64,000 bases of DNA from IMG/VR virus record IMGVR_UViG_3300035034_002381, positions 1-64,000 of that record. One strand, written 5' to 3'. Of the stretch, positions 6,528 to 64,000 are shown in pieces. This DNA comes from a virus (Duplodnaviria; Heunggongvirae; Uroviricota; Caudoviricetes). Below the pieces are notes generated by a model. The model was not told the DNA's origin. It searched no databases and saw nothing but the letters and a program-made list of their open reading frames with translations. The translations under genes and the position numbers were made by a program. Numbering within the stretch: the stretch's first letter is position 1; every line of letters begins with the position of its first letter.

Positions 6528-6576
6528 TAAAACTATATCAATCTTAGATATATAATACAAATAAATTAAATTAAAT

Positions 6577-8636: not shown

Positions 8637-8645
8637 ATCTTAACT

Positions 8646-8870
8646 ATGAAAAAGGTAACATTTCTAATTTTAATATTGTTCAACATTAATTTATGGGCAC
8701 AAGAACAACCAGATACAGTTTATGTTCTGAAAAGTTTTACAGTCAAAGGTGTGAGAGCTGATCCTAAAACACCGATCACACAAAAAACAATAGACAAGAA
8801 ATTTATTGAACGCAATTATTTTGGTCAAGAAATTCCTATTCTTTTAAATACCACACCATCAATAAATTAG
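8646..8870 (+). CDS. Small secreted protein
   Basis: Signal peptide MKKVTFLILILFNINLWAQ. Confidence 0.45.
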   Translation: MKKVTFLILILFNINLWAQEQPDTVYVLKSFTVKGVRADPKTPITQKTIDKKFIERNYFGQEIPILLNTTPSIN

Positions 8871-9116
8871 GTATGGAAAAATCTCAAGACTTTGAACCAA
8901 CCGAACCAGAAGAAATGTATTAAAATAATTGAAAATAACTCTTCCAGATTAAAACTTTTTGATTACTTTTGTATATATACTGTATATTTAAACAAACAAT
9001 AATGAAAACACAAATCAACATAACTACCAGTTATTCTTTAAGAAGCTTATGTACGTCGCTGAGACTATATGAGACAGGGTATCTATGTTGATCAAACATA
9101 TTTTTGATTACAAACT

Positions 9117-9150
9117 AAACCCTGTCTATTTAATTAGACAGGGTTTTTTT
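9117..9150 (+). terminator. Rho-independent terminator (aaccctgtcta-tttaatt-agacagggtt plus TTTTTTT)
   Basis: Hairpin plus T-run preceding the third tRNA cluster. Confidence 0.75.
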
Positions 9151-9155
9151 ATTTG

Positions 9156-9245
9156 GAAGATAAAGCAGCTGCATTGGAGCGGCGACTAGCCTTGAAAACT
9201 AGGTCTCGGAGAAATCTGGGTGGGGTTCGAGTCCTCTGTCTTCCT
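9156..9245 (+). tRNA. Class II tRNA-Ser (TGA)
   Basis: Acceptor ggaagat/gtcttcc, anticodon loop cttgaaa, long variable arm, T-loop ttcgagt; 90 nt. Confidence 0.55.
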
Positions 9246-9276
9246 CAAAGTTTTAGTTCATTGACATATTAATATT

Positions 9277-9362
9277 AGAGGATGCGGTAATGGTGGTTAT
9301 TACAGTATCTTGGAAAGGTACCGATCGTTTATTCGGTCAGGGTTCGACTCCCTCATCCTCTG
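9277..9362 (+). tRNA. Class II tRNA-Ser (GGA)
   Basis: Acceptor agaggatg/catcctct, anticodon stem gtatc/ggtac with loop ttggaaa, variable arm ccgatcgtttattcggtc, T-arm agggttcgactccct. Confidence 0.65.
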
Positions 9363-9493
9363 CTATGTTCTTCTTAGAATAACTAATTTATGTAAATGTG
9401 AGTTCGAATCTCATCAAATGCTTTTAGCATCTGTAGCCAAATGGTTAGGCAATATACTTGAAATATATAACAAACGATTAGAAGAACAACATG

Positions 9494-9566
9494 CTTCCAT
9501 AGTATAAAGGTTCATTATTCCTGTTTTGTAATCAGGCGATATCGGTTCGATTCCGATTGGGAGCTC
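9494..9566 (+). tRNA. tRNA-Thr (TGT)
   Basis: Acceptor gcttcca/tgggagc, anticodon loop tttgtaa, T-arm atcggttcgattccgat. Confidence 0.6.
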
Positions 9567-9714
9567 AATGAATATGATGTTTATTTAGATCCTAAAAATG
9601 ATTATCTTATTGGTATAGATAGTAAAAAAATTGAAAAGGTCGAAGAATTGTATAATGTGCGTAATAATAGACAAGGATAATTTATCTTGGAATGATATTC
9701 AAAATAAAATAAAT

Positions 9715-9795
9715 GTTTCAGTGGTGGAATGGTAGACACGTCGGTCTTAGGAACCGATGCCGAAAGGCGTGAGAGTTCGAGTCTCTCCTGGAATA
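9715..9795 (+). tRNA. Class II tRNA-Leu (TAG), canonical architecture
   Basis: D-arm gtg-gaatggtaga-cac, anticodon stem tcggt/accga with loop cttagga, variable arm gccgaaaggc, T-arm gagagttcgagtctctc. Confidence 0.65.
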
Positions 9796-9796
9796 C

Positions 9797-9876
9797 ACTC
9801 TGGTGGATTAGGTAAATTGGTACAGCTAAACGGCTTAGACCCGTATCCCTTCTGGGTTCGAATCCCAGTCAGAGTA
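9797..9876 (+). tRNA. Atypical 80-nt tRNA-like gene, family member 1. The anticodon-like hairpin is acgg-cttagac-ccgt (TAG). There is no variable arm, and a 7-nt insertion separates the acceptor from the 3-bp D-stem
   Basis: Acceptor actctgg/tcagagt, conserved block tggattaggtaaattggtacagctaa, T-arm ctgggttcgaatcccag. Confidence 0.5.
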
Positions 9877-9881
9877 CAAAT

Positions 9882-9961
9882 GCTCCTGTGGTTTATGTAA
9901 ATTGGCACAGCTAAGCGGCTTAAACCCGCAACCTTTATGGGTTCGAGTCCCATCAGGAGTA
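9882..9961 (+). tRNA. Atypical 80-nt tRNA-like gene, family member 2; anticodon-like hairpin gcgg-cttaaac-ccgc (TAA)
   Basis: Acceptor gctcctg/caggagt, conserved block tggtttatgtaaattggcacagctaa, T-arm atgggttcgagtcccat. Confidence 0.5.
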
Positions 9962-10056
9962 CAAAAGTTTATCAACGTCTTGAGTCAAGTTGGATGATGA
10001 CAAAAAGGCTAACGGCAGAAGTGAATCCATCGCACTGTGTTACATAAACTTTATCT

Positions 10057-10129
10057 GGCCAGGATTCTCAATTGGACGGGACTCTGTCTTCTAAACAGAT
10101 GTTTGTGGGTTCGAATCCCATCTTGGTCT
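10057..10129 (+). tRNA. tRNA-Arg (TCT)
   Basis: Acceptor ggccagg/cttggtc, anticodon stem tctgt/acaga with loop cttctaa, T-arm gtgggttcgaatcccat. Confidence 0.6.
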
Positions 10130-10135
10130 CTAAAC

Positions 10136-10209
10136 GCAGGTATACCTAAGTGGTTTAAAGGAGCGGATTGCAAACCCGTTATTCATTGGTTCGAATCCAA
10201 TTACCTGCT
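10136..10209 (+). tRNA. tRNA-Cys (GCA)
   Basis: Perfect acceptor gcaggta/tacctgc, anticodon loop ttgcaaa, T-arm attggttcgaatccaat. Confidence 0.7.
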
Positions 10210-10214
10210 CACTT

Positions 10215-10297
10215 GGAAGGTAACTTGATGGTGATAGAGGTAGTTTGCTAAACTACTGGCCGTTTACTCGGTCGAGGTTCGATTCCTCTGCCTTCCG
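10215..10297 (+). tRNA. Class II tRNA-Ser (GCT)
   Basis: Acceptor ggaaggt/gccttcc, anticodon stem gtagt/actac with loop ttgctaa, variable arm ggccgtttactcggtc, T-arm gaggttcgattcctc. Confidence 0.7.
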
Positions 10298-10301
10298 CTA
10301 T

Positions 10302-10379
10302 GCTCCTGTGGATTATGTAAAAGCACAGCTAACACCTTGAGGAGGTGATCCTTTGTGGGTTCGAGTCCCGCCAGGAGTA
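10302..10379 (+). tRNA. Atypical tRNA-like gene, family member 3; anticodon-like hairpin cacc-ttgagga-ggtg (GAG)
   Basis: Acceptor gctcctg/caggagt, conserved block tggattatgtaaaagcacagctaa, T-arm gtgggttcgagtcccgc. Confidence 0.5.
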
Positions 10380-10404
10380 CAAAGAAGCAAAGAGTTAGTT
10401 AGGT

Positions 10405-10479
10405 TAGACTGGCTTGTTATGTGGTGAAATTGGTAAACGCGAGCGCTTTGGTGCTTAGTAACCTTAACACTTCTTATTT
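10405..10479 (+). ncRNA. Partial tRNA-like element: a Leu-type D-arm gtg-gtgaaattggtaaac-gc plus a hairpin, with no T-arm. It abuts the next tRNA
   Basis: Shares its D-arm sequence with the 10788-10899 element. Confidence 0.3.
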
Positions 10480-10553
10480 GCTGAGTTAGTATAGTCGGTT
10501 TATTACGATACCCTGGTACGGTATTAACACCAGTTCGATTCTGGTACTCAGCT
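10480..10553 (+). tRNA. tRNA-Thr (GGT)
   Basis: Perfect acceptor gctgagt/actcagc, anticodon stem atacc/ggtat with loop ctggtac, T-arm accagttcgattctggt. Confidence 0.7.
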
Positions 10554-10565
10554 CATGAAAAATAT

Positions 10566-10645
10566 GCCTCTGTGGATTATGTAAATTGGCACAGCTAACG
10601 GTTTCAAACTCCGATCTTTTATGGGTTCGAATCCCATCAGAGGCA
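10566..10645 (+). tRNA. Atypical tRNA-like gene, family member 4; anticodon-like hairpin cgg(t)-ttcaaac-(t)ccg (CAA)
   Basis: Perfect acceptor gcctctg/cagaggc, conserved block tggattatgtaaattggcacagctaa, T-arm atgggttcgaatcccat. Confidence 0.5.
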
Positions 10646-10661
10646 CAAGTAGGAGAAATTT

Positions 10662-10746
10662 AGTCCAGTGGCGAAACAGGTATACGCACAAGATTTAAGC
10701 TCTTGCTTCCATTGAGGAATTGCGGGTTCGATTCCCGCCTGGATTA
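10662..10746 (+). tRNA. Class II tRNA-Leu (TAA), canonical architecture
   Basis: Acceptor agtccag/ctggatt, D-arm gcg-aaacaggtata-cgc, anticodon stem caaga/tcttg with loop tttaagc, variable arm ttccattgaggaa, T-arm gcgggttcgattcccgc. Confidence 0.65.
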
Positions 10747-10787
10747 CTAAGTTAGTACGGGTTCGATCCCCGTCTTGGCTACTAAAT

Positions 10788-10899
10788 TTGACCGTGGTGA
10801 AATTGGTAAACACACCCTTAAATCAGGGAGTATGAGAATATGTACTTGAAGCTGACGCAGAACATCATACATATGTAGGTTCGAATCCTATCGGTCGAA
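10788..10899 (+). ncRNA. 112-nt tRNA-like RNA with a roughly 45-nt extra stem-loop (atatgta...tacatat) inserted before the T-arm
   Basis: Acceptor ttgaccg/cggtcga, Leu-type D-arm gtg-aaattggtaaa-cac, anticodon-like ccc-ttaaatca-ggg, T-arm gtaggttcgaatcctat. Confidence 0.4.
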
Positions 10900-10904
10900 C
10901 AAAT

Positions 10905-10978
<74 letters not shown>

Positions 10979-11325
10979 CTATCTAAAACTTTATTCAATT
11001 TCCATAATATAATGTGTAACTAAACTTTATAGAAATGGAAAAAATACTAATGTCTGAAATTTTGACTTATGACAACTTCGACGACGGTTTACCTGAAGAA
11101 TATGAATTTGTCGATTCTGAACAAACATATTTTGATGGTGAAAAAGGCTTTGTTAATATCGAAGCTATTATCAGAAGAGAATCAGACTCACAATTTTTAA
11201 AGTAAAATACACCGATTATGGAAAAGGTGAAAATGATCTTATGGAAAGTGTGGGCGAACCTGTAACTCAAAAATCCAAAACAATTTTCTACTATGTAACT
11301 CAAAAATCCAAAACAATTTTCTACT

Positions 11326-52052: not shown

Positions 52053-53924
52053 ATGGCAAACCCAAATTTTTCAGCCACCAGAAATATAACTAATGAGGTC
52101 GACCTTAATTCTCAAGAAGCACAAAATACTCTTGATAATTCTTCTGACCCAAGTGCACCAAGTTCACTTAATGAATCCAGATTAACCAATGATTCAAATA
52201 TTGGTAAAGGTGGTCCATATTCAAATCCAGGTAGAGCAAGTGGCGGGTGGCCTAATTTCAGAAGACCAGGCGAAGAGCCCGACGATATTGCAGCAATTGG
52301 TGCCGACAGTCTTATCGGAATGCCCTTTCCCGATGATGAAGGTGGTAACGGCTATACCATAACTGCGTTAAAAAGAGGACCAGATTCTACAGGAAACTTG
52401 AACGGTTTCGCCGATCCAAGAACATTTATTGATCGACCAGGTGAACAACCTTGGTATAATACTGATGGTGTAAATGCCAGAGAACCATTAACATCCGAAA
52501 TTATTAAATGGGCTCAAAACGGCCAAGGCAGTAGTGAAGGTGGCGGTCGGAACAAAAGGCCATATAAATACACTGATTTTGTTTTCGCGAAATATTGGAA
52601 CAAAATTCCAAATAACTATATGATGACTTTACGTAGGTTTCCATATCCTGTATTTGATAATTTGCAATTTCCTGGAGAGAATGGTGGTGAAGATGTATCT
52701 CCACAAAAATACTACGCGCCTATAGCACAGGCTATAACTTATATGGGAGATGAAACTGAAAACAAACTTTCGAATATAGTTTCGTTTGATGCGGGATTAC
52801 CTCATAGCGAATTAAAGGCGGAAGTCCATGAGATAACTGGTCAAAATCCAGGGGCTGGGTCTGGTCCAGGAGGCGGATTAGCTAGGGTTTTAGGAATACT
52901 TTCTGGTGAAGCAAATGCACAGACAATCATTCGAAATGGAGAAGCAGTAGATCCTTATACAAATGGACCATATATGAATAGAGTACAAGGTCCATTAAAT
53001 AGAATAGATTCAGTTAATCGAAGAGATCCAGGCCTAACGTTTGATCAAAAATTTGAATTAAAGTTTCATTATGTAGCTAGACCGATTGGTGGATCTAATA
53101 CCAAGGCAGTAATGTTAGATATATTGGCTAATTTACTTACGTTAACATATGCTGAAGCCTCATTTTGGGGAGGATCACATAGATTTACAGGCGGAAGGCC
53201 TGCTTATCCGTTTTTAGGTGGTGCTGCTGGAACAAACGCTTTATTCCAAGGTGATATGGGCGGGTTTTATGATGCACTAACAAATCAAATTGCTGACGCG
53301 GGAGCAAATATTTCCAGTATATTCGATTCATTATTGTCTGGAGATCCAATCGAAGGTCTTAAAAATTTAGCTGCTGGTGGTGCCAAATTAGGAATTTCTG
53401 CTCTAATGGCAGGTAAAAGGCCGATGGCTTGGCAATTACCTGCTTTACTTACGGGTAATCCAGTGGGAGAATGGCATCTGACTGTGGGTAATCCATTAAA
53501 TCCAATTATGGAAATTGGTAATTTGGTATGTACAAATATTAAAATAGAGTTTGGTGATGAGATGGGTCCTGATGACTTTCCACTTGAAATGACCGCTACA
53601 ATTTCACTTGATCATGGAATGCCTAGAGATAAAGCTTCGATTGAATCTATGTTTAACCGCGGAGGTGGGAAAATTTATTATGTACCGGATGAATACCAGT
53701 TTGGTACTGGGAAAAATAGTCTTAATGGTACTTCTGTGGATGCGGCCTCATCTCGAGATGCTACAGAACAAGGACAAACTGTTCATCAACGAACTTCTTC
53801 ACAGAGAAATGTAGAAGAAATCGATAGATTAATTACTAACGGAAAAAGAGATGTATCAGCAGTCTCTAAAAATTTATTAGAAACAGCCAAAATGGTTACT
53901 GGTTATGGGACTAATCAAGTCTAA
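52053..53924 (+). CDS. Virion structural protein (tail/baseplate module)
   Basis: 623-aa Gly/Pro/Asn-rich protein in the structural block. Confidence 0.35.
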   Translation: MANPNFSATRNITNEVDLNSQEAQNTLDNSSDPSAPSSLNESRLTNDSNIGKGGPYSNPGRASGGWPNFRRPGEEPDDIAAIGADSLIGMPFPDDEGGNGYTITALKRGPDSTGNLNGFADPRTFIDRPGEQPWYNTDGVNAREPLTSEIIKWAQNGQGSSEGGGRNKRPYKYTDFVFAKYWNKIPNNYMMTLRRFPYPVFDNLQFPGENGGEDVSPQKYYAPIAQAITYMGDETENKLSNIVSFDAGLPHSELKAEVHEITGQNPGAGSGPGGGLARVLGILSGEANAQTIIRNGEAVDPYTNGPYMNRVQGPLNRIDSVNRRDPGLTFDQKFELKFHYVARPIGGSNTKAVMLDILANLLTLTYAEASFWGGSHRFTGGRPAYPFLGGAAGTNALFQGDMGGFYDALTNQIADAGANISSIFDSLLSGDPIEGLKNLAAGGAKLGISALMAGKRPMAWQLPALLTGNPVGEWHLTVGNPLNPIMEIGNLVCTNIKIEFGDEMGPDDFPLEMTATISLDHGMPRDKASIESMFNRGGGKIYYVPDEYQFGTGKNSLNGTSVDAASSRDATEQGQTVHQRTSSQRNVEEIDRLITNGKRDVSAVSKNLLETAKMVTGYGTNQV

Positions 53925-54637
53925 TGAAATTAGAAAAAACTATAGATAATAAGAGGGTTTTTGAAAAACCTAATGGCGATCAAGTAATTGATTTGACTCA
54001 ACAAAATTATAATCCGGCGAATTTTACAAAAATCATAGATTATATCATAGTAAGTCAAGATTTGGCTATGCGCCCGGATTTAATTTCTATTGCAGCTTAT
54101 CGAGATATATCCGCGACTGATCTTATAATGAAACAGAATGCCATATCTAATCCTTTTTCGATTGATGAAGGTGAAATAATTTTTATTCAAGAAAGGAGAG
54201 AAATAAATCGCCAGTTTAAAGATGTTGGTCGAATAGCAGATAAAAATAGAGTACGTACACAATATATTGATTCTGATAAAGCACCTGGAATCGATGACAA
54301 TTTAGAAAAATTCAATATTAGACAAAAACCTAAACCTGGCATCAATAAACCAGTAGCTTTACCACCTAATTTTGCTAATTTTGGAGATGAAGAAATTAAA
54401 TTTAGAGGTGGAAAAGTCGTATTTGGAGAAGATATTACAGACAATAAAGAAGTTTGTGAGGAAGAAACATTATCAAAATCAGAGTTTTTGAAAAGACTTT
54501 CCAAAAATAGAATGACGAATACAAATAGAAGATCGATTGAGACTGCACAATCAACTTTTAGAACAGATCAGAACAATATTGATAACCCACCAAATAATGG
54601 AAATTTTAGAAATGGTGGTACTGAAGGAGGTAGATAA
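53924..54637 (+). CDS. Virion structural protein, hypothetical
   Basis: ATGA-coupled to the upstream gene. Confidence 0.3.
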   Translation: MKLEKTIDNKRVFEKPNGDQVIDLTQQNYNPANFTKIIDYIIVSQDLAMRPDLISIAAYRDISATDLIMKQNAISNPFSIDEGEIIFIQERREINRQFKDVGRIADKNRVRTQYIDSDKAPGIDDNLEKFNIRQKPKPGINKPVALPPNFANFGDEEIKFRGGKVVFGEDITDNKEVCEEETLSKSEFLKRLSKNRMTNTNRRSIETAQSTFRTDQNNIDNPPNNGNFRNGGTEGGR

Positions 54638-56094
54638 TGGCACAAGAAGAAAAAAGTATAATACGTTCATTATTAGAACCAACAATTGCTTTAGATGAAC
54701 TTTCATTTGCGGATGTCGAAGAAGGTACAAATTCGGGTAATTTTAGAGGAGATAAAGTCCAAAAAACAATAGGTAATTTATTTCCTATGATAGTTATTAA
54801 CGACTATATTATTTCTGAGGAAGAGCTTGAAAGAATGACAATCGACACTACTGGATTTATTCCATTAATTACGATAAAAATGGTTTTGTCTCAAACGTCA
54901 ACATTTGTATCCAAAGCAATGCCCAAAGATGGTGATTTAATGAATGTCTTTGTACGAGCAAGATCAAACGAATTTAAACCTATACGCAATGATTATCTAA
55001 TCACAAACGTTTCAACATCTAAAAGTGTAACTCCTGACGGACATGGAATGTCTATTATTATAGGAGGCGAATTATTTATACCCAATTTATATGATGAAAG
55101 AATAGTTGCTAAGAATGGTTCTTCGTATGAGGCTATAAAAGAAATTGCGCAAGACTTAGGTTTAGGATTTGCGTCAAACGAATCTTTTACAGCTGACGAA
55201 CAAACATGGTTATGTGGTAACAATTCATATTATAATTTTATCCATCATATTACAGATTCTTCTTGGAAAAATGAAAATTCTTTTTTCCAATGCTTTATTG
55301 ATATCTATTATCATTTAAATTTTGTGAATGTGAACAATCAATTCAGTGATCAAGTTAGAATAGATGACGCGCTGGTCGATACGTTATTTTCACAAGATAC
55401 ATTAGAAGGAGAAGAAATAGCATTGACTATTGACCGTAAAGTATTCACAAATATTACTGATAAACAGGGAACACCCATGTGGATTAAGAAATATGCTATG
55501 ATTAACCAATCATCTGATTTGGCCAAAAAATATGGTTATAAAATGCATTGTGAGTTTTTTGAACAAAATACATTAGAGAAATGGGATATTTTTTCAGAAC
55601 CATTAATTGTAGAAAGTTCAGAAAATAACAAAATTCTATTAAAAGGTAGACCTAATGAGGATTTTTATAAAACTCAGATTAAAAAGAGATGGGCAGGTCT
55701 GCAATATTCATTACCCGAACATAATGTACATGATAAATATTTGTATGCACAAATTAATAATCTTATGAACAATACTGAGCTGAAAAAATTACAGCTCAAA
55801 ATTGAAGTACCTAGAGCAAATTTCAATATTTATCGGGGAGAGCGGGTGCCTTGTGTACTTATTTCAGTTGGTGATCCTAGGAAAACTCCGTATTTACAAG
55901 GAGAACAAGAATTGTCCGAAGGCGGAGATTTGTCATCACCGACTGCACCTGTTCTTGATAAATTTTTAAGCGGATACTATATGATTCAGGGTATGGTATT
56001 TTCTTACAAAACAAGAAATCCTGATTTACCGGAAGATCGAGCATTTTTCTCGGAGGATATTATACTTTCTAGAAGGGTTTGGCCTGTACCGTGA
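54637..56094 (+). CDS. Virion structural protein, hypothetical
   Basis: ATGA-coupled; 485 aa. Confidence 0.3.
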   Translation: MAQEEKSIIRSLLEPTIALDELSFADVEEGTNSGNFRGDKVQKTIGNLFPMIVINDYIISEEELERMTIDTTGFIPLITIKMVLSQTSTFVSKAMPKDGDLMNVFVRARSNEFKPIRNDYLITNVSTSKSVTPDGHGMSIIIGGELFIPNLYDERIVAKNGSSYEAIKEIAQDLGLGFASNESFTADEQTWLCGNNSYYNFIHHITDSSWKNENSFFQCFIDIYYHLNFVNVNNQFSDQVRIDDALVDTLFSQDTLEGEEIALTIDRKVFTNITDKQGTPMWIKKYAMINQSSDLAKKYGYKMHCEFFEQNTLEKWDIFSEPLIVESSENNKILLKGRPNEDFYKTQIKKRWAGLQYSLPEHNVHDKYLYAQINNLMNNTELKKLQLKIEVPRANFNIYRGERVPCVLISVGDPRKTPYLQGEQELSEGGDLSSPTAPVLDKFLSGYYMIQGMVFSYKTRNPDLPEDRAFFSEDIILSRRVWPVP

Positions 56095-56104: not shown

Positions 56105-59023
56105 ATGTCAGCAAATACTAAATATCTAAAAAGAAAGCATGTTTCTAAATTTTTGCAATCTGCACAATTTTTAGGAAAAAGAGGTGTCCTACATAATGAT
56201 TATGACGAACCTACATACGTTGGGTTCTGGGTAGAATTTGATTTTGTTGGCCCTTCATTAGATGATCCTGCGCTGATTAATTATAATCGGATGCCTAATG
56301 GACTTTTAGGTACTGAAAATGGTACATATTCGGCTGAAAAATATCTTAGAAGCATCAACGAGGATCGTAAGGCTGATATGATTAATGCGTTTAATAAACT
56401 TCTTCGAGATATTTCTAAAGAAACTCCGGATGCAATAGCATCAATATCGGGTTTGGATTCTCTGTATAAATTAGATCCGACAAAAAGTTGGAGAGCATCA
56501 GAAGCTGAAATTACATTGAATTTTGAAGAATCTATAGATAATCGCATCAACGCACTGTTTGATCTTTATCGCCAGGGTGCATTCGATGCGTCATTTATGC
56601 GTTGGGCATTACCGGATATTCATAGGTTTTTTAAAATGAATATTTATGTTACAGAGTTTAGAGCTTTCCATGTACCAAGAGGTAATAACGAAAGAGCAAC
56701 ACTAGAAGAAAATGAAGACTTTATAGATATAGGAGATCAAAATAGATCAGGTAAAAGTTTTTTGAATCAACAAGTTGATGGATACAAAACACAATTCAAT
56801 AATATCAGTGATTCAATTAATGAAAGAACTGCTACAGGACCTGATGGTAAAAGTCGTCTAGCAAGTGAAGTGAGTTCAGGATCATTTTTCAGTGCACAAA
56901 CGTCTGATGATATTTCAACTAACGATTATTTTTTGAAGGTTCTCGATAAGAATCTCACGATATTAAAATTTGAACTTGGTGACTGTGAAATTGTTTTACC
57001 TGAACTTGCACCTTCGTGGACACAAGAAATATCAAATCAAATTCATGGAGAATCTTTAACAGCAGCAATGAAGATAAAAATTGGTAATATTTGTGAGGTT
57101 AATGAATATTCAGCTTTAGGTGCTAGCTTATTTCAAGGTTTAGATAATTTAAGTGATTACGTTTTATCCTGTAAATTCAAAACACAGAAAACTGATATTG
57201 ATAAATATTTCGAAATTTTAGGTGATAGTTCTAAATCTACTGCGGACAGTGTCTATTCTGACGTTAATTATCCTTATGGTAAAGGACATTTAACAAACAG
57301 TGATAATGAAATTTTTAAAGGCATAGGCGAAAGATTGTTAGAAAATTCATTTACATTATTAGAATCTACTATACAAAATGCAGTGAGTGAAGAAGTTAAT
57401 GGTGTGTTTTTAGGAAATGTTTATAATTTTTCTGCTGCAAGTGCATTCAGAAGCTTATCAGCTGATCCAAGAGCAATTGGTGCATCACTTTCACAGATTA
57501 TTAATAACGCAAATGGGTCTGAGAATGGTGGAGAAATTCTAAACAACATTAACCTAGAAATCACAAGGGCACCAGACTTAATCAAAAATAATCCTAAACT
57601 TGAATTAAATTTTTCAGAAACTAGAGATCAGAATCCTGGAAGCGCAGATATTGAATCTGTTGACCCACAGGAACAAGACCCGGGAAATTCTGGCTTGACA
57701 CAAGTCGAAATTAATGAGTCTTCACCAGGTAACATTGGATTATTAAGCACACCCACCAATCCAGGTAATCCAGGATCAATAGATTTAAGAATACCAGAAA
57801 AAGCTCAGGCAAATCAAGAAAATGTAGATTTAAATTCTCCAGATTCTCCACAAGCCTCTCCACAAAACGCAGATCTAAATTTTACAGAGCCTCAGAATCA
57901 GAGTACAGGAAATATAGAATTAACACAAGTACCAAACTCTGAAGCTGACACGGGTAACATCGGATTATCCGATGTTCCAGTAAATGACATAAGTGAGCTT
58001 GGAAATCAAGATCTAAACTTTAGAGAGACTACAGACGAAAATCCAGGTAATGTTGATTTAGACGAAATTAGTATATCAGAAGGAAATTTAAGTAATGTTG
58101 GTTTAGACATTAATGAAGTGCAATCAGATACAGAAGATAATGTTGATTTAAATTATCCACCAATAAATGATGCTGATCAAAATAATGTACAACTCACACA
58201 AGTCGAGTCCTCTAATGATCAACCTAATAATGTTGGAATAGATTTTTCTGAATCTACTGATACAAATTTAGATAATCTCGAATTGAATTATCCATCAAAA
58301 TCTACAACCAAAGAAGAAAACGTGGGTTTAGATAATGTAGAAATAAAATCAGACAGACCTACAAATGTTGGTTTGGAAATTGATGAAAACATTAATGAAA
58401 CTGACAAAAACGTAGATCTCAATTATGTTAATAACAAATCTAGTGTTGACGAAAATATCAATTTATCTGAGGTCGAATTAAAATCAAAAAGACCACAATC
58501 TGTTGATTTAAAATTTAATACTAATCCTGAAGCTGAAAATGATAACGTAGACTTAGATTATCCTAAGAAGATTAATAAGGAAAATGAACCAGTTGAAAAT
58601 ATTTCATTATCCGAAGTTAATGATCCTAAAAATACTGTAAATAACGTTGACATTAATTATATAGAACAAAAGAAAAAGGAAAGACCTACAAAAATAGAAA
58701 TAGATGGTGATTATCTTAGAAAGGAAGCGCTAGGTAAAATTGAATTAAAAGGACAAGAATCAACAGGAAAAATTGACACGAAAGTAAATGTCAGTTATCC
58801 ACAAAAAGATAAGAATGAGCCTGGCAATTCCGGTATTGAATATGAATACACAACCGAGAAGGATGTTATAGGAAATACACAAGAAGAATCACCAGAAAAT
58901 GAGACTAATTTAGATAACAAAAACGCAGGTTTAAAATATAGAGATCATAAAACTTTTCCAAAAGAAGGAACAGAAATTCAGTCAACAAAACCTATTAAAA
59001 AGCCTAAGCGCAAAAACGAATAA
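56105..59023 (+). CDS. Large tail/baseplate protein (tape-measure or hub-associated) whose C-terminal half is a degenerate roughly 20-22-aa tandem repeat
   Basis: At least 15 repeats of the pattern xNVDLNYPxxxxxxxxNVGLDxxE between residues 500 and 900; sits immediately upstream of the gp5-like spike. Confidence 0.4.
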   Translation: MSANTKYLKRKHVSKFLQSAQFLGKRGVLHNDYDEPTYVGFWVEFDFVGPSLDDPALINYNRMPNGLLGTENGTYSAEKYLRSINEDRKADMINAFNKLLRDISKETPDAIASISGLDSLYKLDPTKSWRASEAEITLNFEESIDNRINALFDLYRQGAFDASFMRWALPDIHRFFKMNIYVTEFRAFHVPRGNNERATLEENEDFIDIGDQNRSGKSFLNQQVDGYKTQFNNISDSINERTATGPDGKSRLASEVSSGSFFSAQTSDDISTNDYFLKVLDKNLTILKFELGDCEIVLPELAPSWTQEISNQIHGESLTAAMKIKIGNICEVNEYSALGASLFQGLDNLSDYVLSCKFKTQKTDIDKYFEILGDSSKSTADSVYSDVNYPYGKGHLTNSDNEIFKGIGERLLENSFTLLESTIQNAVSEEVNGVFLGNVYNFSAASAFRSLSADPRAIGASLSQIINNANGSENGGEILNNINLEITRAPDLIKNNPKLELNFSETRDQNPGSADIESVDPQEQDPGNSGLTQVEINESSPGNIGLLSTPTNPGNPGSIDLRIPEKAQANQENVDLNSPDSPQASPQNADLNFTEPQNQSTGNIELTQVPNSEADTGNIGLSDVPVNDISELGNQDLNFRETTDENPGNVDLDEISISEGNLSNVGLDINEVQSDTEDNVDLNYPPINDADQNNVQLTQVESSNDQPNNVGIDFSESTDTNLDNLELNYPSKSTTKEENVGLDNVEIKSDRPTNVGLEIDENINETDKNVDLNYVNNKSSVDENINLSEVELKSKRPQSVDLKFNTNPEAENDNVDLDYPKKINKENEPVENISLSEVNDPKNTVNNVDINYIEQKKKERPTKIEIDGDYLRKEALGKIELKGQESTGKIDTKVNVSYPQKDKNEPGNSGIEYEYTTEKDVIGNTQEESPENETNLDNKNAGLKYRDHKTFPKEGTEIQSTKPIKKPKRKNE

Positions 59024-59025
59024 AT

Positions 59026-59817
59026 ATGAGTACTAAAAACCAAGAAAAAAGATTATTATCCCAAGATCTTAAAGAGAAAAATTGGATTGGTGAAGTAGTA
59101 GAAAACGATGATCCCGAAATAGAATTCAGATGTAAAATAAAAGTCTTTGGACTATTTGATGATTTAGAAACAGATTCTATTCCCTGGGCATTTCCTGCTA
59201 ATCAAGGAATTTTTGCGTCTGAAGCGGGTGGTGCAGGTAGTGGTTCAGTTCCAAAAATCGGTACTTTACTCAAGGTGACTTTTGAAAATGGAGATATATA
59301 TTCTCCTATGTATCATGCAATACAAAATATTAACCCAGCACTTAAAGAAGAGATTAGAGATGATTATCTTGGATCACATGTGATTGCATATGATGAAGAT
59401 GCAGATTTAAAGATTTTATACCAACCTGATACCGGAATAAAAATCCATCTCAGAGATTCCCATGTTACAATTAATCCTGATGAAAGCATTACAATAGAAC
59501 ATAGGGATTCTTTAAGTATCATAGAACTTGTAGGCGATACAGTGAATGTAGTTACACAGAATAGAATAGAAATGACAGCAGATACGGATATTATTGCGAC
59601 TGCACCACAAGCTACTATTAATGGTACACAAAGAACTACGTTAGGTCCATTAGGTAATTTTGGTGCAGTAGGTTCTGAACCTTTATGGGCATTTCTAAAA
59701 AGTTTAGCAGCCGTAGTTGATGCTAAATGGCCTCCAACACCAGGTATTAATGCTGCAGCTGCAGCGGCAGGAGAAGTAGCAAGTACATCACTCAACAATA
59801 AAGTCTCAGTTCCGTAA
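59026..59817 (+). CDS. Baseplate central spike protein (gp5 / VgrG-type N-terminal OB-fold domain; no lysozyme domain)
   Basis: NWIGEVVENDDPEIEFRCKIKVFGLFDD...IPWAFP parallels the T4 gp5 N-terminus (FVGVVEDVMDPELRGRVRVRVHGLHD...LPWA). Confidence 0.5.
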   Translation: MSTKNQEKRLLSQDLKEKNWIGEVVENDDPEIEFRCKIKVFGLFDDLETDSIPWAFPANQGIFASEAGGAGSGSVPKIGTLLKVTFENGDIYSPMYHAIQNINPALKEEIRDDYLGSHVIAYDEDADLKILYQPDTGIKIHLRDSHVTINPDESITIEHRDSLSIIELVGDTVNVVTQNRIEMTADTDIIATAPQATINGTQRTTLGPLGNFGAVGSEPLWAFLKSLAAVVDAKWPPTPGINAAAAAAGEVASTSLNNKVSVP

Positions 59818-59827
59818 AAAATAAAAA

Positions 59828-62587
59828 ATGTCATTAGAACAAGCAACTTCAGAACTCAACAGATTATTAAACACTATACCAAATAGATCGGAAGAGATTC
59901 AAAATTTTATTGAGTTACAAAAAGAATCTTTCAGAAACATTGATGGTGAATTATTTCCTAAGACAGGATTTGAAGAATTATCTTCCGCTGAGTTATTAAA
60001 TATTATAGATCAAACTTATCCTGGGTTCAAAGAAAACTTTCAAGAAATATTCGATACAATTGTACCTGTCACAATTAACGAATTTGACTCTGATGTCTAT
60101 AGCGAAAAGGAAATTCTTGAAGTAATTGAAGATTGGAAGAAAGAATGTGCTATTAGATCGTTAGGTCAAGAAAATTTTTCTAAAGAAGAGATTATAGACT
60201 CTGTTAAAGAGTGTCGGCAACAAGTAGAAAATCCTATCATTCCGTTCACAAGACAAGAAATTATTAAGGCTGCATGTGAAAAAATTATAGAAGAATCGGA
60301 AGTAAATCCAGAAGCAGTCATTCCAGGAAACCCCGATATTGAAGATGTTATTGGTGTCGACACAATAGAACCTGAACTAGGAGTCCAAGAATTAGACAAT
60401 TTACTAGAAGCAATCAAGGATCCGACTGATGTGATAATTATCGGAAATACTTTAGACACAATCCTAGAAATTTTAGTAAAAGTTGGTGATCAAATCTCAT
60501 GTGCCACACCGTTATTTAGAACAGAATCTGGAATAATACCCGGAGGATTTGACTCAGGAGTTGTAAAAGAAATATTTGTGACTGTCGGAGATTCAATACA
60601 AAACACAGAATTAATTCACATAAATGTTCTTTCAAAAAGTAAGTTAGAAAAATCTTTTGCTGAATCTAAAGAACAGATATCAGAAATTCAACAAGCTGTG
60701 GCTCTAAAGGAACAACAATATCAAGCTGAAAAGAAATGGTATTTTTTAAGATTAGAAGAAGCTTGGTTATCAGGTCGCTATGAATCATATGAATATTATT
60801 TTTCTGGTTTTACTGAAGCATTACAAAGAAGAGATACAGAAAATCAAAGATTACAGGATTTAACACAAGAAATTACTGATATCGAAGATCAAATCAATAC
60901 ATTATTTCAGGGTTATGAAACTACATTTGGAACTGGATCATTACCATTAGCAACAAGACAAAATTTAAGAAGTTTAATAGATCTTAGAAATGTTATTTAT
61001 ATTCAGATTCAGGGTGCCGTTTCCATTATAAACCAAGCGAATGGTGAAATCTTACAATTAAGAAATGAACAATACATTTTTGCTGCTACTGAGGCTGATA
61101 TTAATGCGGAAATCACGTCCGAAACTTCTATTATTGACGATTCTATTTTTTCTGTAGATATTCAAGGTAATCCAGCACCGAATGGAAATTTTATTGTTAA
61201 TCCAATTTTTGATGGTGGTACCCAAGTTCAATTCTTTATTCCTTCACAAGAAACAGTGAATGCGTATCCATCATCAAGAACTTTGGCAAAAGGAGTTCAA
61301 CAAAGAATCGAAGAATTCACAAATGAATTAGGAATCAATAATACTATTTCTAGATATATGGACGATGACGATTATTCGTTTAGTTATAATTTATCGTTTA
61401 CACGATTCCCTATAGATATTGATGGAGATGACGATGACGCATGGATCGAAGCTGAAATTATATCTAGAGATAATAGGCGAGATAGATTGTCGGGACCCTT
61501 TCATAATTTACGAGTAGGATTTTATTTGTTTGTTACAGAATCTAGTGATACATTAAAATCTACACCAGCATGGAATATTGAAGTTAAGGAAAAGGAAAAC
61601 TTATTAAGACTAAATATTGATAGTGCTATTAATAATGCTGAAAATAGAATTCGAGATTATTCTAAACAATATGGCCACATTGCTATAAAACTTCAGGACG
61701 CGTTTTTAGAAATACCTGGCACTAGTACTTTAGATTCATTTAGAATTTCTCTAGAAAATAAAGGGGCTGAACGACAAGCAGCCGAAGAATTAGTCTCAAC
61801 TATTAGAGGTGGATTAGAATCAGCAGAAGAAAAAATTCAACAATTAGAAGAAACTCTGAATTCAATAGATAATAAGACTTGCGAATATTATAAGATTTAT
61901 TCCACAGAACTCAGAAATGATATTAATTTTAAATTATGTATTTGGCCACAAGCTACATCTTTAAACGGTAATGGTGGTAGTGAAAATGGAGTACCATTAG
62001 TAAATGAGGAAATTAATTATAGATCTAATCCAAGATCATTAGAAGAATCTCCACCAATAACTGATCTAGAATGGTGGAAAAAATTCTGTAATTTAGCAAC
62101 AATATTTAATTTAGTACCCATTTATTGGCCTATTGGATTATTAATTCCTAATCCTAGTGGTATACTCAAAATTCCTTTACCAGTTATTTGGAGACCTATA
62201 TTTGTATTACAGACTCCATTAGCATTGATTGTAATTGGAATTGCACAAGCCGGAGTATTACCTGGACCATTTGTTTTTGTACTAAATCCTAATGCGTTTA
62301 GTTTGGGGCCAGTAAGTTTAAATTCTTGTTGGTTTACTGGTGCAGTCAGACCATTCAAAAAAATTAAAAATAAACCAGGATCTCAAATTTTACCTATTGC
62401 ACCAATTATACAAATAGGATTGAACAAAATTGACATAAATCCGAGTGCTACTTCTTTGATTCCATTTATTAAGGATGATCTGCCACCATACGAAAGACTT
62501 TCTTTAAATAACATTCTATTTTTGTTATTCTTGAATAGTTGGTGTAGTGCTGGCAAGAAAAGCCAAGGATTTTTTACTAACCCCTAA
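59828..62587 (+). CDS. Large baseplate/tail structural protein with a hydrophobic Pro/Gly-rich C-terminal region
   Basis: 919 aa; C-terminus LIPNPSGILKIPLPVIWRPIFVLQTPLALIVIGIAQAGVLPGPFVFVLNPNAF. Confidence 0.3.
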   Translation: MSLEQATSELNRLLNTIPNRSEEIQNFIELQKESFRNIDGELFPKTGFEELSSAELLNIIDQTYPGFKENFQEIFDTIVPVTINEFDSDVYSEKEILEVIEDWKKECAIRSLGQENFSKEEIIDSVKECRQQVENPIIPFTRQEIIKAACEKIIEESEVNPEAVIPGNPDIEDVIGVDTIEPELGVQELDNLLEAIKDPTDVIIIGNTLDTILEILVKVGDQISCATPLFRTESGIIPGGFDSGVVKEIFVTVGDSIQNTELIHINVLSKSKLEKSFAESKEQISEIQQAVALKEQQYQAEKKWYFLRLEEAWLSGRYESYEYYFSGFTEALQRRDTENQRLQDLTQEITDIEDQINTLFQGYETTFGTGSLPLATRQNLRSLIDLRNVIYIQIQGAVSIINQANGEILQLRNEQYIFAATEADINAEITSETSIIDDSIFSVDIQGNPAPNGNFIVNPIFDGGTQVQFFIPSQETVNAYPSSRTLAKGVQQRIEEFTNELGINNTISRYMDDDDYSFSYNLSFTRFPIDIDGDDDDAWIEAEIISRDNRRDRLSGPFHNLRVGFYLFVTESSDTLKSTPAWNIEVKEKENLLRLNIDSAINNAENRIRDYSKQYGHIAIKLQDAFLEIPGTSTLDSFRISLENKGAERQAAEELVSTIRGGLESAEEKIQQLEETLNSIDNKTCEYYKIYSTELRNDINFKLCIWPQATSLNGNGGSENGVPLVNEEINYRSNPRSLEESPPITDLEWWKKFCNLATIFNLVPIYWPIGLLIPNPSGILKIPLPVIWRPIFVLQTPLALIVIGIAQAGVLPGPFVFVLNPNAFSLGPVSLNSCWFTGAVRPFKKIKNKPGSQILPIAPIIQIGLNKIDINPSATSLIPFIKDDLPPYERLSLNNILFLLFLNSWCSAGKKSQGFFTNP

Positions 62588-62634
62588 TTGATATATACTA
62601 AATAAACAATTATCAATTTTTTAAAAATAACAAA

Positions 62635-63840
62635 ATGAATAACATTACTGAACAAGGAGATCCAGATTTTGACTGGGCAACATATGAATCGGAAGATTTT
62701 AAAGGTTATAACAAGGATATCCAAAAAATCTATCCAGAGTCTAGAGTTTTATGTAGAAAAGACTATGCTTTAGATTTATACGAGTTAATGCTGGATTATC
62801 CAGTCAAAATTAAAGATGTCCAAGATGGAGATATAGTACAAATAACCTCTATTGAACCTGTCGAGGAATACACAGTATTAGTTACGACATATAATGGATT
62901 ATCTTTACGAGTAGATTTAACTAAAGAAAAAAGGTTCTGCGGGTTTTACGATTTAACACCCGAAGATTTATGGGAAGTTTTACAATCACCAGAAAATCAA
63001 ACAGAAATATTGGAGTCTGAACCAGTGTATATCGAAATTAAGAATACATCACAAGGGATAATTGGAAGCTTATCTAAAGCTCGAGATCATAAAGTTCAAC
63101 ATGATTTTCTTGAAGAAATTAAAAGCCCTTCTAGTGCATATCAAGCAAAGGTTGTTGGATTAAATAAGGGTGGATTTTTTGTAAAGGTTCAAGGTATTGA
63201 CGCATTTCTACCAGGTGGATTAGCTGCGGCAAATAAAATTACGAATTTTGAATCTTATTTAGGTAAAGAAATACCTGTAATGATTGAAGATTACTTGAAG
63301 GATAATGATACATTCATTGTTAGTAACAAAAAATATTTAGATCATATTTTACCAGGTAAAATTGCAAATTTATCCTTAGATAAGGAATATAAAGGTACAG
63401 TTACTGGTACTGCAAAGTTTGGTATTTTTATTGAATTTGATGAAATTTTTACTGGACTGATCCATGTTTCTAAAATGATTAAAGAAACCAAAGAACTTTT
63501 TAAGAACAGGGAAATTAAAGCAGGAGATGAAATGTATTTCTGGATCAAAGAAATCACTGATACTAACAAGATTATTTTGTCTGAAGAAAATCCTATGCTT
63601 AAAAAGATTGCGTTTGATCAATTCAAAGAAAGTAGTGTAGGAATGATTAAAGAAGGTAAAGTTATCTCAAACAAACCCTTTGGGACATTAGTCAAAATGG
63701 AAAAAGATATCATAGGATTAATTTCTAAAAAGGAATTAAAAACAAAAAATATTTTTCCTGAAGTAGGTGGAACTATTATGGTGACTGTGGATGATATCAA
63801 GAAAAATAAAATTTATCTTTCATTACCTAATGAAGCCTAA
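62635..63840 (+). CDS. rpsA: Ribosomal protein bS1 homolog (three to four S1 RNA-binding domains)
   Basis: Domain 2 VVGLNKGGFFVKVQGIDAFLPGGLAA matches E. coli S1 [26 protein letters not shown]. Domain 3 AKFGIFIEFDEIFTGLIHVSKM matches the S1 FGAFV...GLLHISE. Domain 1 has GDIVQITSIEPVEEYTVLV. Shorter (401 aa) than cellular S1. Confidence 0.7.
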   Translation: MNNITEQGDPDFDWATYESEDFKGYNKDIQKIYPESRVLCRKDYALDLYELMLDYPVKIKDVQDGDIVQITSIEPVEEYTVLVTTYNGLSLRVDLTKEKRFCGFYDLTPEDLWEVLQSPENQTEILESEPVYIEIKNTSQGIIGSLSKARDHKVQHDFLEEIKSPSSAYQAKVVGLNKGGFFVKVQGIDAFLPGGLAAANKITNFESYLGKEIPVMIEDYLKDNDTFIVSNKKYLDHILPGKIANLSLDKEYKGTVTGTAKFGIFIEFDEIFTGLIHVSKMIKETKELFKNREIKAGDEMYFWIKEITDTNKIILSEENPMLKKIAFDQFKESSVGMIKEGKVISNKPFGTLVKMEKDIIGLISKKELKTKNIFPEVGGTIMVTVDDIKKNKIYLSLPNEA

Positions 63841-64000
63841 ACATTATACACAGAATGAAATTTTAGAAGGTTCTAGAATAGGAATCGAGTTTGAGTTTTA
63901 TACCAAAATTTCACCAAATAAAGTAGGAAAAATGCTTTCTGAAAAATTAGGTAAAAACGTGGTAGTACCAAAATCTATTACCGAACTTGAGAAAAAAGAA

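Follow-up and report, generated by a model that had tools for sequence, protein, structure and literature searches.

Ribosomal protein S1 homologues in phages predate this analysis as an idea: huge phages that rarely have Shine-Dalgarno (SD) sequences were reported to carry "possible rpS1s", a true rpS1 being "difficult to confirm" in a study that offers no domain-level analysis (Al-Shayeb et al., 2020, Nature 578:425, PMC7162821). A survey of virus-encoded bS21, bL12 and others purposely left S1-domain proteins out as ambiguous (Mizuno et al., 2019, PMC6375957), and the bS1 of cyanophage PhiMa05 groups with Vampirovibrio bS1 (PMC13157829). In E. coli, the N-terminal segment of bS1 anchors the protein to uS2 (PMC4288201, PMC10123108), and F120 and F130 form the mRNA-exit pocket (PMC10123108). 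Bacteria that ignore SD sequences, such as Bacteroidota, are believed to recruit mRNA mainly through bS1, and the Bacteroidota ribosome structure is without bS1 and uS2 (PMC7797042).

The gene described here lies in a 64,000-nucleotide stretch of a tailed-phage record (the window; positions 1 to 64,000 of IMG/VR record IMGVR_UViG_3300035034_002381). The gene and the parts of its product, which we call mini-bS1, are as follows.

62635..63840, + strand: S1-like gene (mini-bS1), 401 aa, ATG start; four OB domains, bS1 homologue
62665..62688, + strand: N-terminal motif DFDWATYE, aa 11-18; helix predicted for aa 14-21; candidate anchor to uS2
62815..63069, + strand: OB1, aa ~61-145; OB fold, divergent; in the AF2 model, three helices (aa 99-128) are inserted between strands 3 and 4
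63070..63123, + strand: OB1-OB2 linker helix, aa 146-163, in the AF2 model
63124..63339, + strand: OB2, aa ~164-235; bS1-domain-2 signature NKGGFFVKVQGIDAFLPGGLAAAN
63370..63585, + strand: OB3, aa ~246-317; canonical S1 RNA-binding domain, strongest Pfam S1 stretch 249-316
63637..63825, + strand: OB4, aa ~335-397; partly degenerate S1 domain, aligns to M. smegmatis bS1 D4

An earlier, sequence-only reading of the window had the extent of this ORF and the presence of S1 domains right (Pfam S1, PF00575, 76.4 bits in 3 stretches), and its call of a phage-encoded S1 homologue is borne out by database and fold comparisons. The top significant NCBIfam matches of the 401-aa protein are all rpsA models, at scores about 7-fold below the rpsA equivalog cut-off (TIGR00717, 83.8 bits vs 577 required; best model, NF004952, 85.8 bits vs a cut-off of 524). 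AF2 folds the protein into four OB domains (pLDDT 89.2), and in Foldseek the full-length, 30S-bound bS1 chain 9gut_B ranks first (E 4.7e-21 over 381 columns), with bS1 chains comprising only D1-D2 also matching at target-normalised TM scores of 0.66-0.70. As a single sequence, mini-bS1 is collinear with D2-D4 of M. smegmatis bS1; as a family profile, it reaches bS1 chains at E values of 1e-33 to 1e-34, the scores for 9zcd_A (122 bits) and E. coli bS1 (119 bits) being too close to discriminate the donor phylum of OB2-OB4. A homologue search with a 63-aa fragment of bS1 D1 returned only fragments of <=111 aa, which gave N-termini and are too short for a full-length phylogeny. Neither Pfam nor NCBIfam detects a catalytic or accessory domain in mini-bS1, a PHROGs search places the protein in no family, and a nucleotide search of positions 60000-64000 against 50,697 phage records gives no match. 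Together, these comparisons indicate that the ORF at 62635..63840 is, by its sequence, a genuine bS1 derivative and not a generic S1-domain protein. The sequence-only reading had named a generic S1 nuclease as the outcome to be feared; the comparison now made favours the rpsA family, with top sequence and fold matches that are all bS1, and a nuclease-type S1 protein is effectively refuted, as Pfam and NCBIfam find no other domain.

OB2 aligns to bS1 D2 alone (E. coli 105-175; 137-249 of the Flavobacterium-type chain 9zcd_A) and carries the D2 signature K-GGF-V-x-G-x-x-AFLPGS, which holds the K117/F120/F130 pocket of E. coli. The block KGGFFVKVQGIDAFLPGGL (aa 178-196) had been described as almost identical to bacterial S1 domain 2; the match is indeed specific to that domain, and the degree of identity was overstated, 13/19 positions agreeing with E. 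coli bS1 D2 and 12/19 with 9zcd_A. Among the 70 family members in which residue conservation was counted, G179, G180, F181, F191, P193, G194 and L196 are invariant in OB2, position 176 is K or R in 64 and N177 is kept in 69; the E. coli counterparts of F181 and F191 are F120 and F130. Upstream of OB2, the modelled linker helix is equivalent to the one that joins D1 and D2 of bS1 (PMC10123108). Downstream of it, OB3 keeps the residues expected to bind RNA in a canonical S1 domain, and G254, T257, G258, K261, G263, F265, E267, H277 and M281 are invariant in the same 70 members. In OB4, G350 and G361 are invariant, F349 is present in 63/70 and the canonical His is replaced by S364.

The N-terminal motif DFDWATYE fits the pattern [DN]F[DN]W..[FY]E carried by the N-termini of Bacteroidota bS1 fragments. 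Of the members in which the N-terminal segment exists, 63/63 have W14 and 44 have F12; approximately 10% of family members are without the motif. The aromatic spacing is F-x-W-x2-Y in mini-bS1 vs F-x3-F in E. coli bS1, and both forms occur in the family, F-x3-F in LR756500 and FxW in the Bacteroidota-type members. By analogy with E. coli, DFDWATYE may act as an anchor to Bacteroidota uS2. Profile-profile comparison with hhalign aligns phage aa 4-96 to bS1 aa 5-76 (P 2.2e-5; reversed and shuffled controls 0.12-0.78), an alignment that takes in OB1 strands 1-3. A HMMER profile of aa 1-165 run against 1.84 billion representatives retrieves no bacterial bS1; what it does retrieve is this phage family again, fragments, and a single spurious repeat protein (P0385). 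Because this search reached the phage family only, the N-terminal homology rests on profile-profile alignment, motif and collinearity. In Foldseek, the N-terminal module alone has no match at E <= 1e-3; the best matches are generic OB/S1 folds (E >= 8.8e-3), and bS1 chain 8wi7_b is found at a TM score of 0.40 and E 0.026. OB1, which stands in the place of the ribosome-contacting domain of bS1, is the most diverged domain of mini-bS1. In E. coli, Lys43 of bS1 D1 inserts into the zinc pocket of uS2. Its equivalent is absent from the β2-β3 loop of OB1, in which columns 86-90 are S/E, G/N, G/F/M, I/L and D; Bacteroidota bS1 has G-x-KSEG at the Lys43 loop position.

The mini-bS1 family comprises at least 467 IMG/VR loci, on contigs of up to 482 kb, and its cellular occurrence is limited to 5 misbinned MAG contigs among 185,579 genomes. 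The family is thus confined to phages, and it is under purifying selection. Its relatives include the Lak megaphages and the LR7565xx huge phages, and the window itself carries 21 tRNAs together with tail and baseplate genes, in agreement with the phage context assumed earlier. The carriers are a large huge-phage lineage related to Lak and LR7565xx, with mini-bS1 as a fixed component, and their hosts are most likely Bacteroidota. The description of the gene as truncated to 401 aa does not hold: 115 of the 120 best homologues reach full length, ~385-410 aa (40-71% identity), and the four-domain layout is conserved at this length. This conserved length rules out a truncated pseudogene. The same gene is present, identical, on two independent assemblies, and host contamination is ruled out by the phage-only distribution and the conserved synteny. 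An alternative genetic code is ruled out as well, since none of the 21 tRNAs is a suppressor and the ORFs are long and uninterrupted.

SD-independent initiation, which the sequence-only reading had brought in as a trait of Bacteroidota, is confirmed for the genome in the window and for the whole lineage. An SD core precedes 2/47 genes in the window vs a background of 9.7%, upstream regions are 45-66% A, and the leader of the S1-like gene has an anti-SD duplex energy of +1.7 kcal/mol. Across 62 related loci, the median SD frequency is 1.5% vs a background of 10%.

The S1-like gene sits within a co-directional tail/baseplate/neck module, in which the following features flank it.

62588..62634, + strand: leader of the S1-like gene, 47 nt, A/T-rich and SD-less, with AATTTTTTAAAAATAACAAA directly before the ATG
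59026..59817, + strand: upstream baseplate hub-like gene (gp5/gp27-type; phrog_37871 4.9e-12, phrog_430 3.2e-10)
63830..64000, + strand: 5' end of the downstream gene, which leaves the window; 466 aa when complete (L002:4139-5539), Amidoligase_2 followed by a C-terminal pentapeptide-repeat β-helix

The hub-like gene is kept upstream of the S1-like gene in 43 loci, a count limited by the available flanks, and in LR756500. The amidoligase-pentapeptide gene overlaps the S1-like stop by 11 nt and lies directly downstream in 78/85 related loci, with a gp13-like adaptor next; PF12224 is found in 22/45 of its members and PF13599 in 25/45, and its PDB match is MfpA (E 3.2e-6). The gene had been taken for the last one of the baseplate operon. 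This placement falls, because co-directional genes go on downstream in the longer source contig (70.7 kb), where the overlapping ORF is followed by the gp13-like adaptor and then by gp25- and gp6-like baseplate wedge genes. The position between hub and adaptor/wedge genes is kept even in phages whose proteins are only 30-40% identical. Over positions 59000-64000, a scan for σ70 promoters and intrinsic terminators scores no better than shuffled sequence and finds no terminator near the S1-like gene, Bacteroidota-type promoters being outside the coverage of the tool. Translation factors are not usually encoded among structural genes, and this position speaks against docking on the ribosome, as do the low rpsA scores, the divergence of OB1, the absence of a Lys43 equivalent, the different aromatic spacing and the members without the N-terminal motif.

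On balance, we consider it probable that mini-bS1 is a phage-adapted, four-domain bS1 derivative that docks on the host ribosome and favours phage messages. The DFDWxxYE helix would bind uS2 of the host on that side of the 30S platform where the mRNA exits, and OB2 would line the exit channel. A-rich, SD-less phage leaders would then be captured by OB3 and, more weakly, by OB4. The ribosome has one bS1 site, which is only weakly held; by taking it, mini-bS1 would compete with host bS1 and supplement or replace it, and initiation on phage transcripts would be raised or biased. Presumably, the protein is made together with the surrounding late structural genes; the late expression and ribosome biasing suggested earlier are plausible. 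Since the motif and the OB2 signature are strongly conserved, W14, F12, F181 and F191 are residues that could be mutated in docking tests.

The same features could also be accommodated by a role away from the ribosome, and we regard it as possible, if unlikely, that mini-bS1 is a bS1-derived RNA-binding chaperone or regulator, free in the cytoplasm, with A/U-rich transcripts of the phage or the host as its ligands. It might shield late mRNAs, unfold RNA, control specific messages in either direction, or assist a phage RNA enzyme, as host S1 assists T4 RegB and Qβ replicase. The full retention of RNA-binding residues in OB3, together with the divergence of OB1 and the absence of a Lys43 equivalent, speaks for such a protein, and S1 is on record as a partner of phage enzymes outside the ribosome (reviewed in PMC13157829). 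Indeed, Qβ replicase, a non-ribosomal partner, is held by the same S1 N-terminal helix and D1-D2 (PMC4288201). However, a pure RNA binder needs just OB3/OB4-type domains, and this explanation leaves the Bacteroidota-type N-terminal motif and the invariance of the non-RNA-binding OB2 signature unexplained.

The genomic position lends itself to a further explanation, in which mini-bS1 is a virion-associated or assembly-linked protein that is packaged or modified there, injected along with the DNA for immediate ribosome takeover, or a substrate or partner of the amidoligase. We think this rather improbable. The conserved placement between hub and adaptor/wedge genes in phages of such low protein identity points in this direction, as do the stop/start overlap with the amidoligase-pentapeptide gene and the linkage of the pair in 78 of 85 loci; furthermore, jumbo phages are known to target ribosomes immediately on infection (PMC10914614). 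However, the protein shows no feature of a structural role, its Lak homologue is not syntenic, and non-structural genes often break up the structural modules of huge phages. As a related and equally doubtful suggestion, mini-bS1 and the amidoligase-pentapeptide protein might form one functional unit, in which the amidoligase covalently modifies either mini-bS1 or one of the host's ribosomal proteins, or both proteins are packaged and enter with the virion for immediate ribosome takeover, and the N-terminal anchor might co-evolve with host uS2. If this were true, the N-terminal anchor variant could predict the host phylum of uncultured huge phages.

Finally, membership in another S1 family (PNPase, RNase E/R, Tex, NusA, CvfD/GSP13-like), or an origin as a host rpsA fragment that is a mere passenger or contaminant and has no function in the phage, can be dismissed as highly improbable: scores lie under the rpsA cut-offs and PNPase, RNase R and GSP13-type matches appear lower in the lists, but each of these covers one S1 domain (aa ~243-317, E 1e-6 to 1e-11, under their own cut-offs), whereas mini-bS1 has four tandem OB domains collinear with bS1, a D2-specific signature and no catalytic or accessory domain, and its hundreds of full-length phage homologues show conserved synteny and are absent from cellular genomes, and the gene itself occurs in identical form on two independent assemblies.

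The obstacle noted in the literature, that in phages a true rpS1 is indistinguishable from generic S1-domain proteins (PMC7162821), is partly removed for the mini-bS1 family by the strong conservation of an N-terminal motif specific to the host phylum and of an OB2 signature peculiar to bS1. The family now amounts to a well-supported annotation of a gene class flagged earlier, and to no new mechanism. If the preferred reading of ribosome docking is confirmed, mini-bS1 would represent a naturally occurring minimal bS1, with four domains, that reprograms initiation independent of SD sites, useful for the study of Bacteroidota translation and of huge-phage takeover of gut and environmental hosts.

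Among cellular proteins, Bacteroidota bS1 (9zcd_A, Flavobacterium-type, 591 aa) and E. coli bS1 resemble mini-bS1 in having an aromatic/acidic helix at the N-terminus and, behind it, tandem OB domains in matching order, with a common OB2 signature (GGF...G..AFLPGS) and a common canonical RNA-binding OB3; Bacteroidota bS1 has the same N-terminal motif as well. Gram-negative bS1 has six OB domains, whereas mini-bS1 has four and is without OB5-OB6. Its OB1, unlike that of bS1, is preceded by ~16 extra residues, contains the three-helix insert and has no counterpart of Lys43, and the gene is encoded on phage genomes only. The best single-sequence PDB match, M. smegmatis bS1 (8wi7_b, 479 aa; aa 136-397 vs 93-362), has four domains too. 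However, the four-domain bS1 proteins of Actinobacteria and Firmicutes are cellular, with a canonical D1 and an N-terminus without the FxW motif.

Among phages, the possible rpS1s of Al-Shayeb et al. (2020) are of the same kind, multi-S1-domain proteins on SD-less genomes of >200 kb. LR756500 from that study holds a syntenic orthologue of 389 aa (L004:11614-12783), and its supplement labels a protein with the family N-terminus, on ALT_09252017_20_scaffold_111, as "30S ribosomal protein S1". The phage S1 gene class is therefore already flagged in huge phages, and the mini-bS1 family is a further member of it; that study appears not to describe the N-terminal motif of Bacteroidota type, the pocket residues that are invariant in OB2, or the conserved placement beside the amidoligase-pentapeptide gene within the baseplate/neck module. 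The Lak megaphages have Prevotella, a member of Bacteroidota, as host (PMC6784885), in a paper that does not discuss their S1-like homologue. The Lak-C1 protein (L003:19959-21068) is 32% identical over aa 6-317, covering the motif (SFNWTPYEDG), OB1, OB2 and OB3; unlike the four-domain mini-bS1, it is 369 aa long, with three OB domains and an acidic tail, and in Lak-C1 the S1-like gene alone is matched, in a different neighbourhood. The bS1 of PhiMa05 belongs to another phage/host system than the mini-bS1 family. Together with virus-encoded bS21 and bL12, it follows the same logic, in which a phage carries its own copy of a peripheral, exchangeable ribosomal protein linked to initiation.

The open reading frame at 62635..63840 (+) starts with ATG and encodes 401 aa, exactly where the sequence-only reading had placed it, and the S1 domains reported there are matched by PF00575 over three stretches (76.4 bits; Pfam). 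Of the 12 best NCBIfam matches, the first eleven are models of 30S ribosomal protein S1 and the twelfth is the single-domain CvfD/Ygs/GSP13 family; TIGR00717 profile positions 54-340 align with phage aa 121-395. The HMM check proposed to separate the rpsA family from generic S1 nucleases (PF00575, TIGR00717) places rpsA models on top, with every rpsA model scoring far below its curated equivalog cut-off in NCBIfam (e.g., 83.8 vs 577 bits). PHROGs holds no family for the protein. The block KGGFFVKVQGIDAFLPGGL indeed aligns specifically with domain 2 of bS1, but the description "almost identical" is too strong (13/19 with E. coli, 12/19 with the Flavobacterium-type chain 9zcd_A). The protein very probably derives from bS1, and we refer to it as mini-bS1.

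A confident AlphaFold2 (AF2) model of the full protein, built on 70 homologues (pLDDT 89.2), contains four OB/S1 domains (OB1-OB4), compared below with domains D1-D4 of bacterial bS1.

Domain arrangement of mini-bS1 in the AF2 model
aa 14-21, 27-32 and 45-52: short N-terminal helices
aa ~67-145: OB1, with a three-helix insert at 99-128
aa 146-163: linker helix
aa 169-230: OB2
aa 251-316: OB3
aa 338-396: OB4

Foldseek against the PDB places ribosome-bound bS1 on top (9gut_B; E 4.7e-21, 381 aligned columns), and the D1-D2-only chains seen on the 30S subunit give a target-normalised TM of 0.66-0.70. The family profile matches bS1 chains at 1e-33 to 1e-34, assigning OB2 uniquely to D2, and OB3 and OB4 to the RNA-binding domains; mini-bS1 as a single sequence aligns collinearly with D2-D4 of M. 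smegmatis bS1. Across 70 aligned members, G179, G180, F181, F191, P193, G194 and L196 of OB2 are invariant, as are the canonical S1 residues K261, F265 and H277 of OB3, and column statistics show OB4 to be partly degenerate. The E. coli equivalents of F181 and F191 are F120 and F130, located at the mRNA exit pocket by D'Urso et al. (PMC10123108).

The primary ribosome anchor of E. coli bS1 is a short N-terminal helix whose Phe5 and Phe9 stack on uS2 Phe32; S1(19-106) does not bind, and a salt bridge from Lys43, in the D1 β2-β3 loop, into the zinc pocket of uS2 contributes further (PMC4288201; PMC10123108). The motif [DN]F[DN]W..[FY]E occurs close to the N-terminus in every N-terminal fragment of Bacteroidota bS1 retrieved (source-named Flavobacterium, Chryseobacterium, Chitinophagaceae and Bacteroidales), e.g., TDFDWEAYESG and QNFDWDAYEKE, and phage aa 10-20 read PDFDWATYESE. 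W14 is present in 63/63 aligned members having the N-terminal segment and F12 in 44. When a profile of the first 165 phage aa is compared with one of Bacteroidota bS1 N-termini, aa 4-96 align with 5-76, covering the motif and OB1 strands 1-3 (P 2.2e-5, probability 76%; reversed control P 0.19, 20 column-shuffled controls 0.12-0.78). Collinearity, the motif and this score are the grounds for the putative equivalence of OB1 to D1. An HMMER profile of aa 1-165, run against 1.84 billion representatives, did not reach bacterial bS1, its 155 clusters all being S1-like family members or fragments; aa 1-165 modelled on their own with AF2 (pLDDT 87) gave only weak, generic OB/S1 fold matches (best E 8.8e-3; TM 0.40 to M. 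smegmatis bS1, 8wi7_b); a Lys43 equivalent is absent from the columns of aligned phage members; and the N-terminal segment is missing from roughly one member in ten. OB1 has therefore diverged strongly.

The anchor also varies among subfamilies, in proteins including P0322, P0365 and P0374. Some members have YW; the orthologue in LR756500 (L004:11614-12783) reads PFEEEFVELE in place of FxW, its F-x3-F spacing being that of E. coli; a Lak-like subgroup places a ~45-aa Lys-rich extension ahead of EFDWDAYE, and its 501-aa P0322 has a Lys/Glu-rich C-terminal tail too. Such variation might track host uS2.

The window represents part of a huge-phage genome, organised as one long co-directional gene array that includes 21 tRNA genes, a gene for thymidylate synthase, and genes of the tail and baseplate; its 60000-64000 stretch has no nucleotide-level match among 50,697 phage records.

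Other features of the window
229-10979: tRNA cluster, 21 genes in three blocks
53924-54637: weak sheath-like match
54617-54636: perfect extended Shine-Dalgarno (SD) GAAGGAGG, upstream of ORF 54637-56094, duplex energy -13 kcal/mol
59026-59817: baseplate hub-like gene

The duplicated tRNAs include Met(cat), Tyr(gta), Ile(gat) and Arg(tct), and a tRNA-Ile at 588-676 is, with its 89 nt, unusually long. An SD core within -20..-3 precedes 2/47 window genes vs 9.7% of random positions, and the median SD frequency in 62 related loci is 1.5% vs a 10% background, bearing out the proposed SD-independent translation. Upstream regions of window genes contain 45-66% A and 2-11% G. This SD-poor, A-rich pattern is of the Bacteroidota SD-independent type (cf. 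PMC7797042), and the SD scarcity reproduces the huge-phage correlation with possible rpS1 (PMC7162821). ORF 54637-56094 is one of the two genes with an SD core and the sole one of nine after 50000; its GAAGGAGG site sits in the 3' end of the preceding gene. Isolated strong SDs in Bacteroidota are regulatory (rpsU, rpsR). The one seen here may be due to chance.

We lean towards a phage-adapted mini-bS1 in which the Bacteroidota-type N-terminal helix would dock on host uS2, OB2 would be placed at the mRNA exit, and OB3 and OB4 would capture A-rich phage leaders, so that loosely bound host bS1 would be supplemented or displaced during late gene expression. Ribosome binding, competition with host bS1, mRNA preference and timing are what we infer. 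A role off the ribosome, as an RNA chaperone, regulator or enzyme cofactor, is distinctly less probable: the divergence of OB1 and the missing Lys43 equivalent would suit it, whereas the invariance of the anchor motif and of the OB2 signature argues against it.

The identical protein is encoded on a 70.7-kb JGI contig and a 39.7-kb ENA contig, both reaching past the window, and on these (L002 coordinates below) the array goes on 3' of the S1-like gene.

Genes downstream of the S1-like gene
63830-64000, continuing at L002:4139-5539: 466-aa ORF, start overlapping the S1 stop by 11 nt
thereafter: two ORFs without assigned function
next: gp13-like head-tail adaptor (PF26809 / phrog_211)
L002:7777-8127: DUF5661/IF2_N protein, 116 aa, between the gp13-like adaptor and the wedge genes
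L002:8378-9370: ATP-grasp protein, 330 aa, about 5.4 kb downstream of the S1-like gene, past the window end
then: gp25-like and gp6-like baseplate wedge proteins
last: 1774-aa protein

With adaptor and wedge genes following, the S1-like gene is therefore embedded in a baseplate/neck module and does not end a baseplate operon, as had been suggested; neither a terminator nor an excess of promoters could be detected in its surroundings. By tblastn, the 466-aa gene lies downstream in 78/85 loci, mostly directly adjoining, followed by the gp13-like (76/85), gp25-like (67/85) and gp6-like (65/85) genes, and the hub-like gene lies upstream in 43/85, a count limited by available flank. The 466-aa protein combines an N-terminal Amidoligase_2 domain (PF12224) with a C-terminal MfpA-like pentapeptide-repeat β-helix. 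A virion-associated or amidoligase-coupled role, to which gene position is the sole pointer, appears improbable. The 116-aa protein matches DUF5661 (E 5.5e-16) and, at the borderline, IF2_N (25.4 bits, cut-off 25.3). The ATP-grasp protein weakly resembles RimK-type "ribosomal protein S6 glutaminyl transferase" (phrog_2599, E 8e-11) and Dala_Dala_lig_C (E 7e-5), with homologues detected in only 4/85 loci; bS6 is among the proteins sequestering the anti-SD in Bacteroidota.

A search of 5.8 billion proteins found 329 relatives, and 115 of the best 120 of these are full-length at about 385-410 aa (40-71% identity). The length therefore reflects a conserved architecture, and the protein is not "truncated to 401 aa"; apart from this and the operon detail, the earlier finding is real and its identity essentially right. 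At least 467 IMG/VR loci encode relatives, on contigs up to 482 kb. Among prokaryotes (one genome per species, 185,579 species), only five MAG contigs match, two of them in Bacteroidota bins (Saprospirales, "Bacteroidetes"). A third of the five, the 425,361-bp JBBACR010000001.1, was deposited within a "Candidatus Pacearchaeota archaeon" MAG and is identical to the IMG/VR viral genome IMGVR_UViG_3300035208_004923; it contains the S1-like gene and full syntenic module, and probably represents a huge phage that was misbinned. By far the least credible explanation, that of a generic S1-domain protein or contaminant, is effectively excluded.

Among phages, mini-bS1 has its closest relatives in the Prevotella Lak megaphages (~540 kb; 32% identity over aa 6-317) and in LR745206 and LR756500-LR756504, huge phages of 460-735 kb. 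LR756500 (462 kb) shares the window's gene order, although protein identity is only 30-37%. The Lak-C1 homologue (L003:19959-21068; 369 aa) has three OB domains and an acidic tail after OB3, whereas mini-bS1 has four; it carries the N-terminal motif as SFNWTPYEDG, and it is not syntenic, being without the window's tail/baseplate genes as flanks. Lak phages recode stop codons, whereas none of the window's 21 tRNAs is a suppressor and the window thus gives no sign of recoding. S1 was counted among huge-phage ribosomal proteins, proteins with up to six S1 domains were noted, and possible rpS1s were tied to SD absence, a true rpS1 being hard to confirm and a role possible on or off the ribosome (Al-Shayeb et al., 2020, PMC7162821). 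The supplement of that study includes a protein with the N-terminus of the S1-like family (MNFDSLENFEWDLP...KIYCHEPYAEELAEL), annotated 30S ribosomal protein S1, and LR756500, one of its phages, carries the syntenic orthologue. S1-domain proteins were left out as ambiguous by Mizuno et al. (2019, PMC6375957), the Lak paper does not mention S1 (PMC6784885), and a bS1 of cyanophage PhiMa05 was reported in 2026 (PMC13157829). The concept of phage rpS1 in huge phages is already published and, with PhiMa05, phage bS1 homologues are therefore a known kind. What appears to be added here is that the four-domain architecture is conserved, that the N-terminal motif is of the host-phylum type, that the OB2 pocket residues do not vary, and that pairing with an amidoligase-pentapeptide gene is conserved within a structural module.
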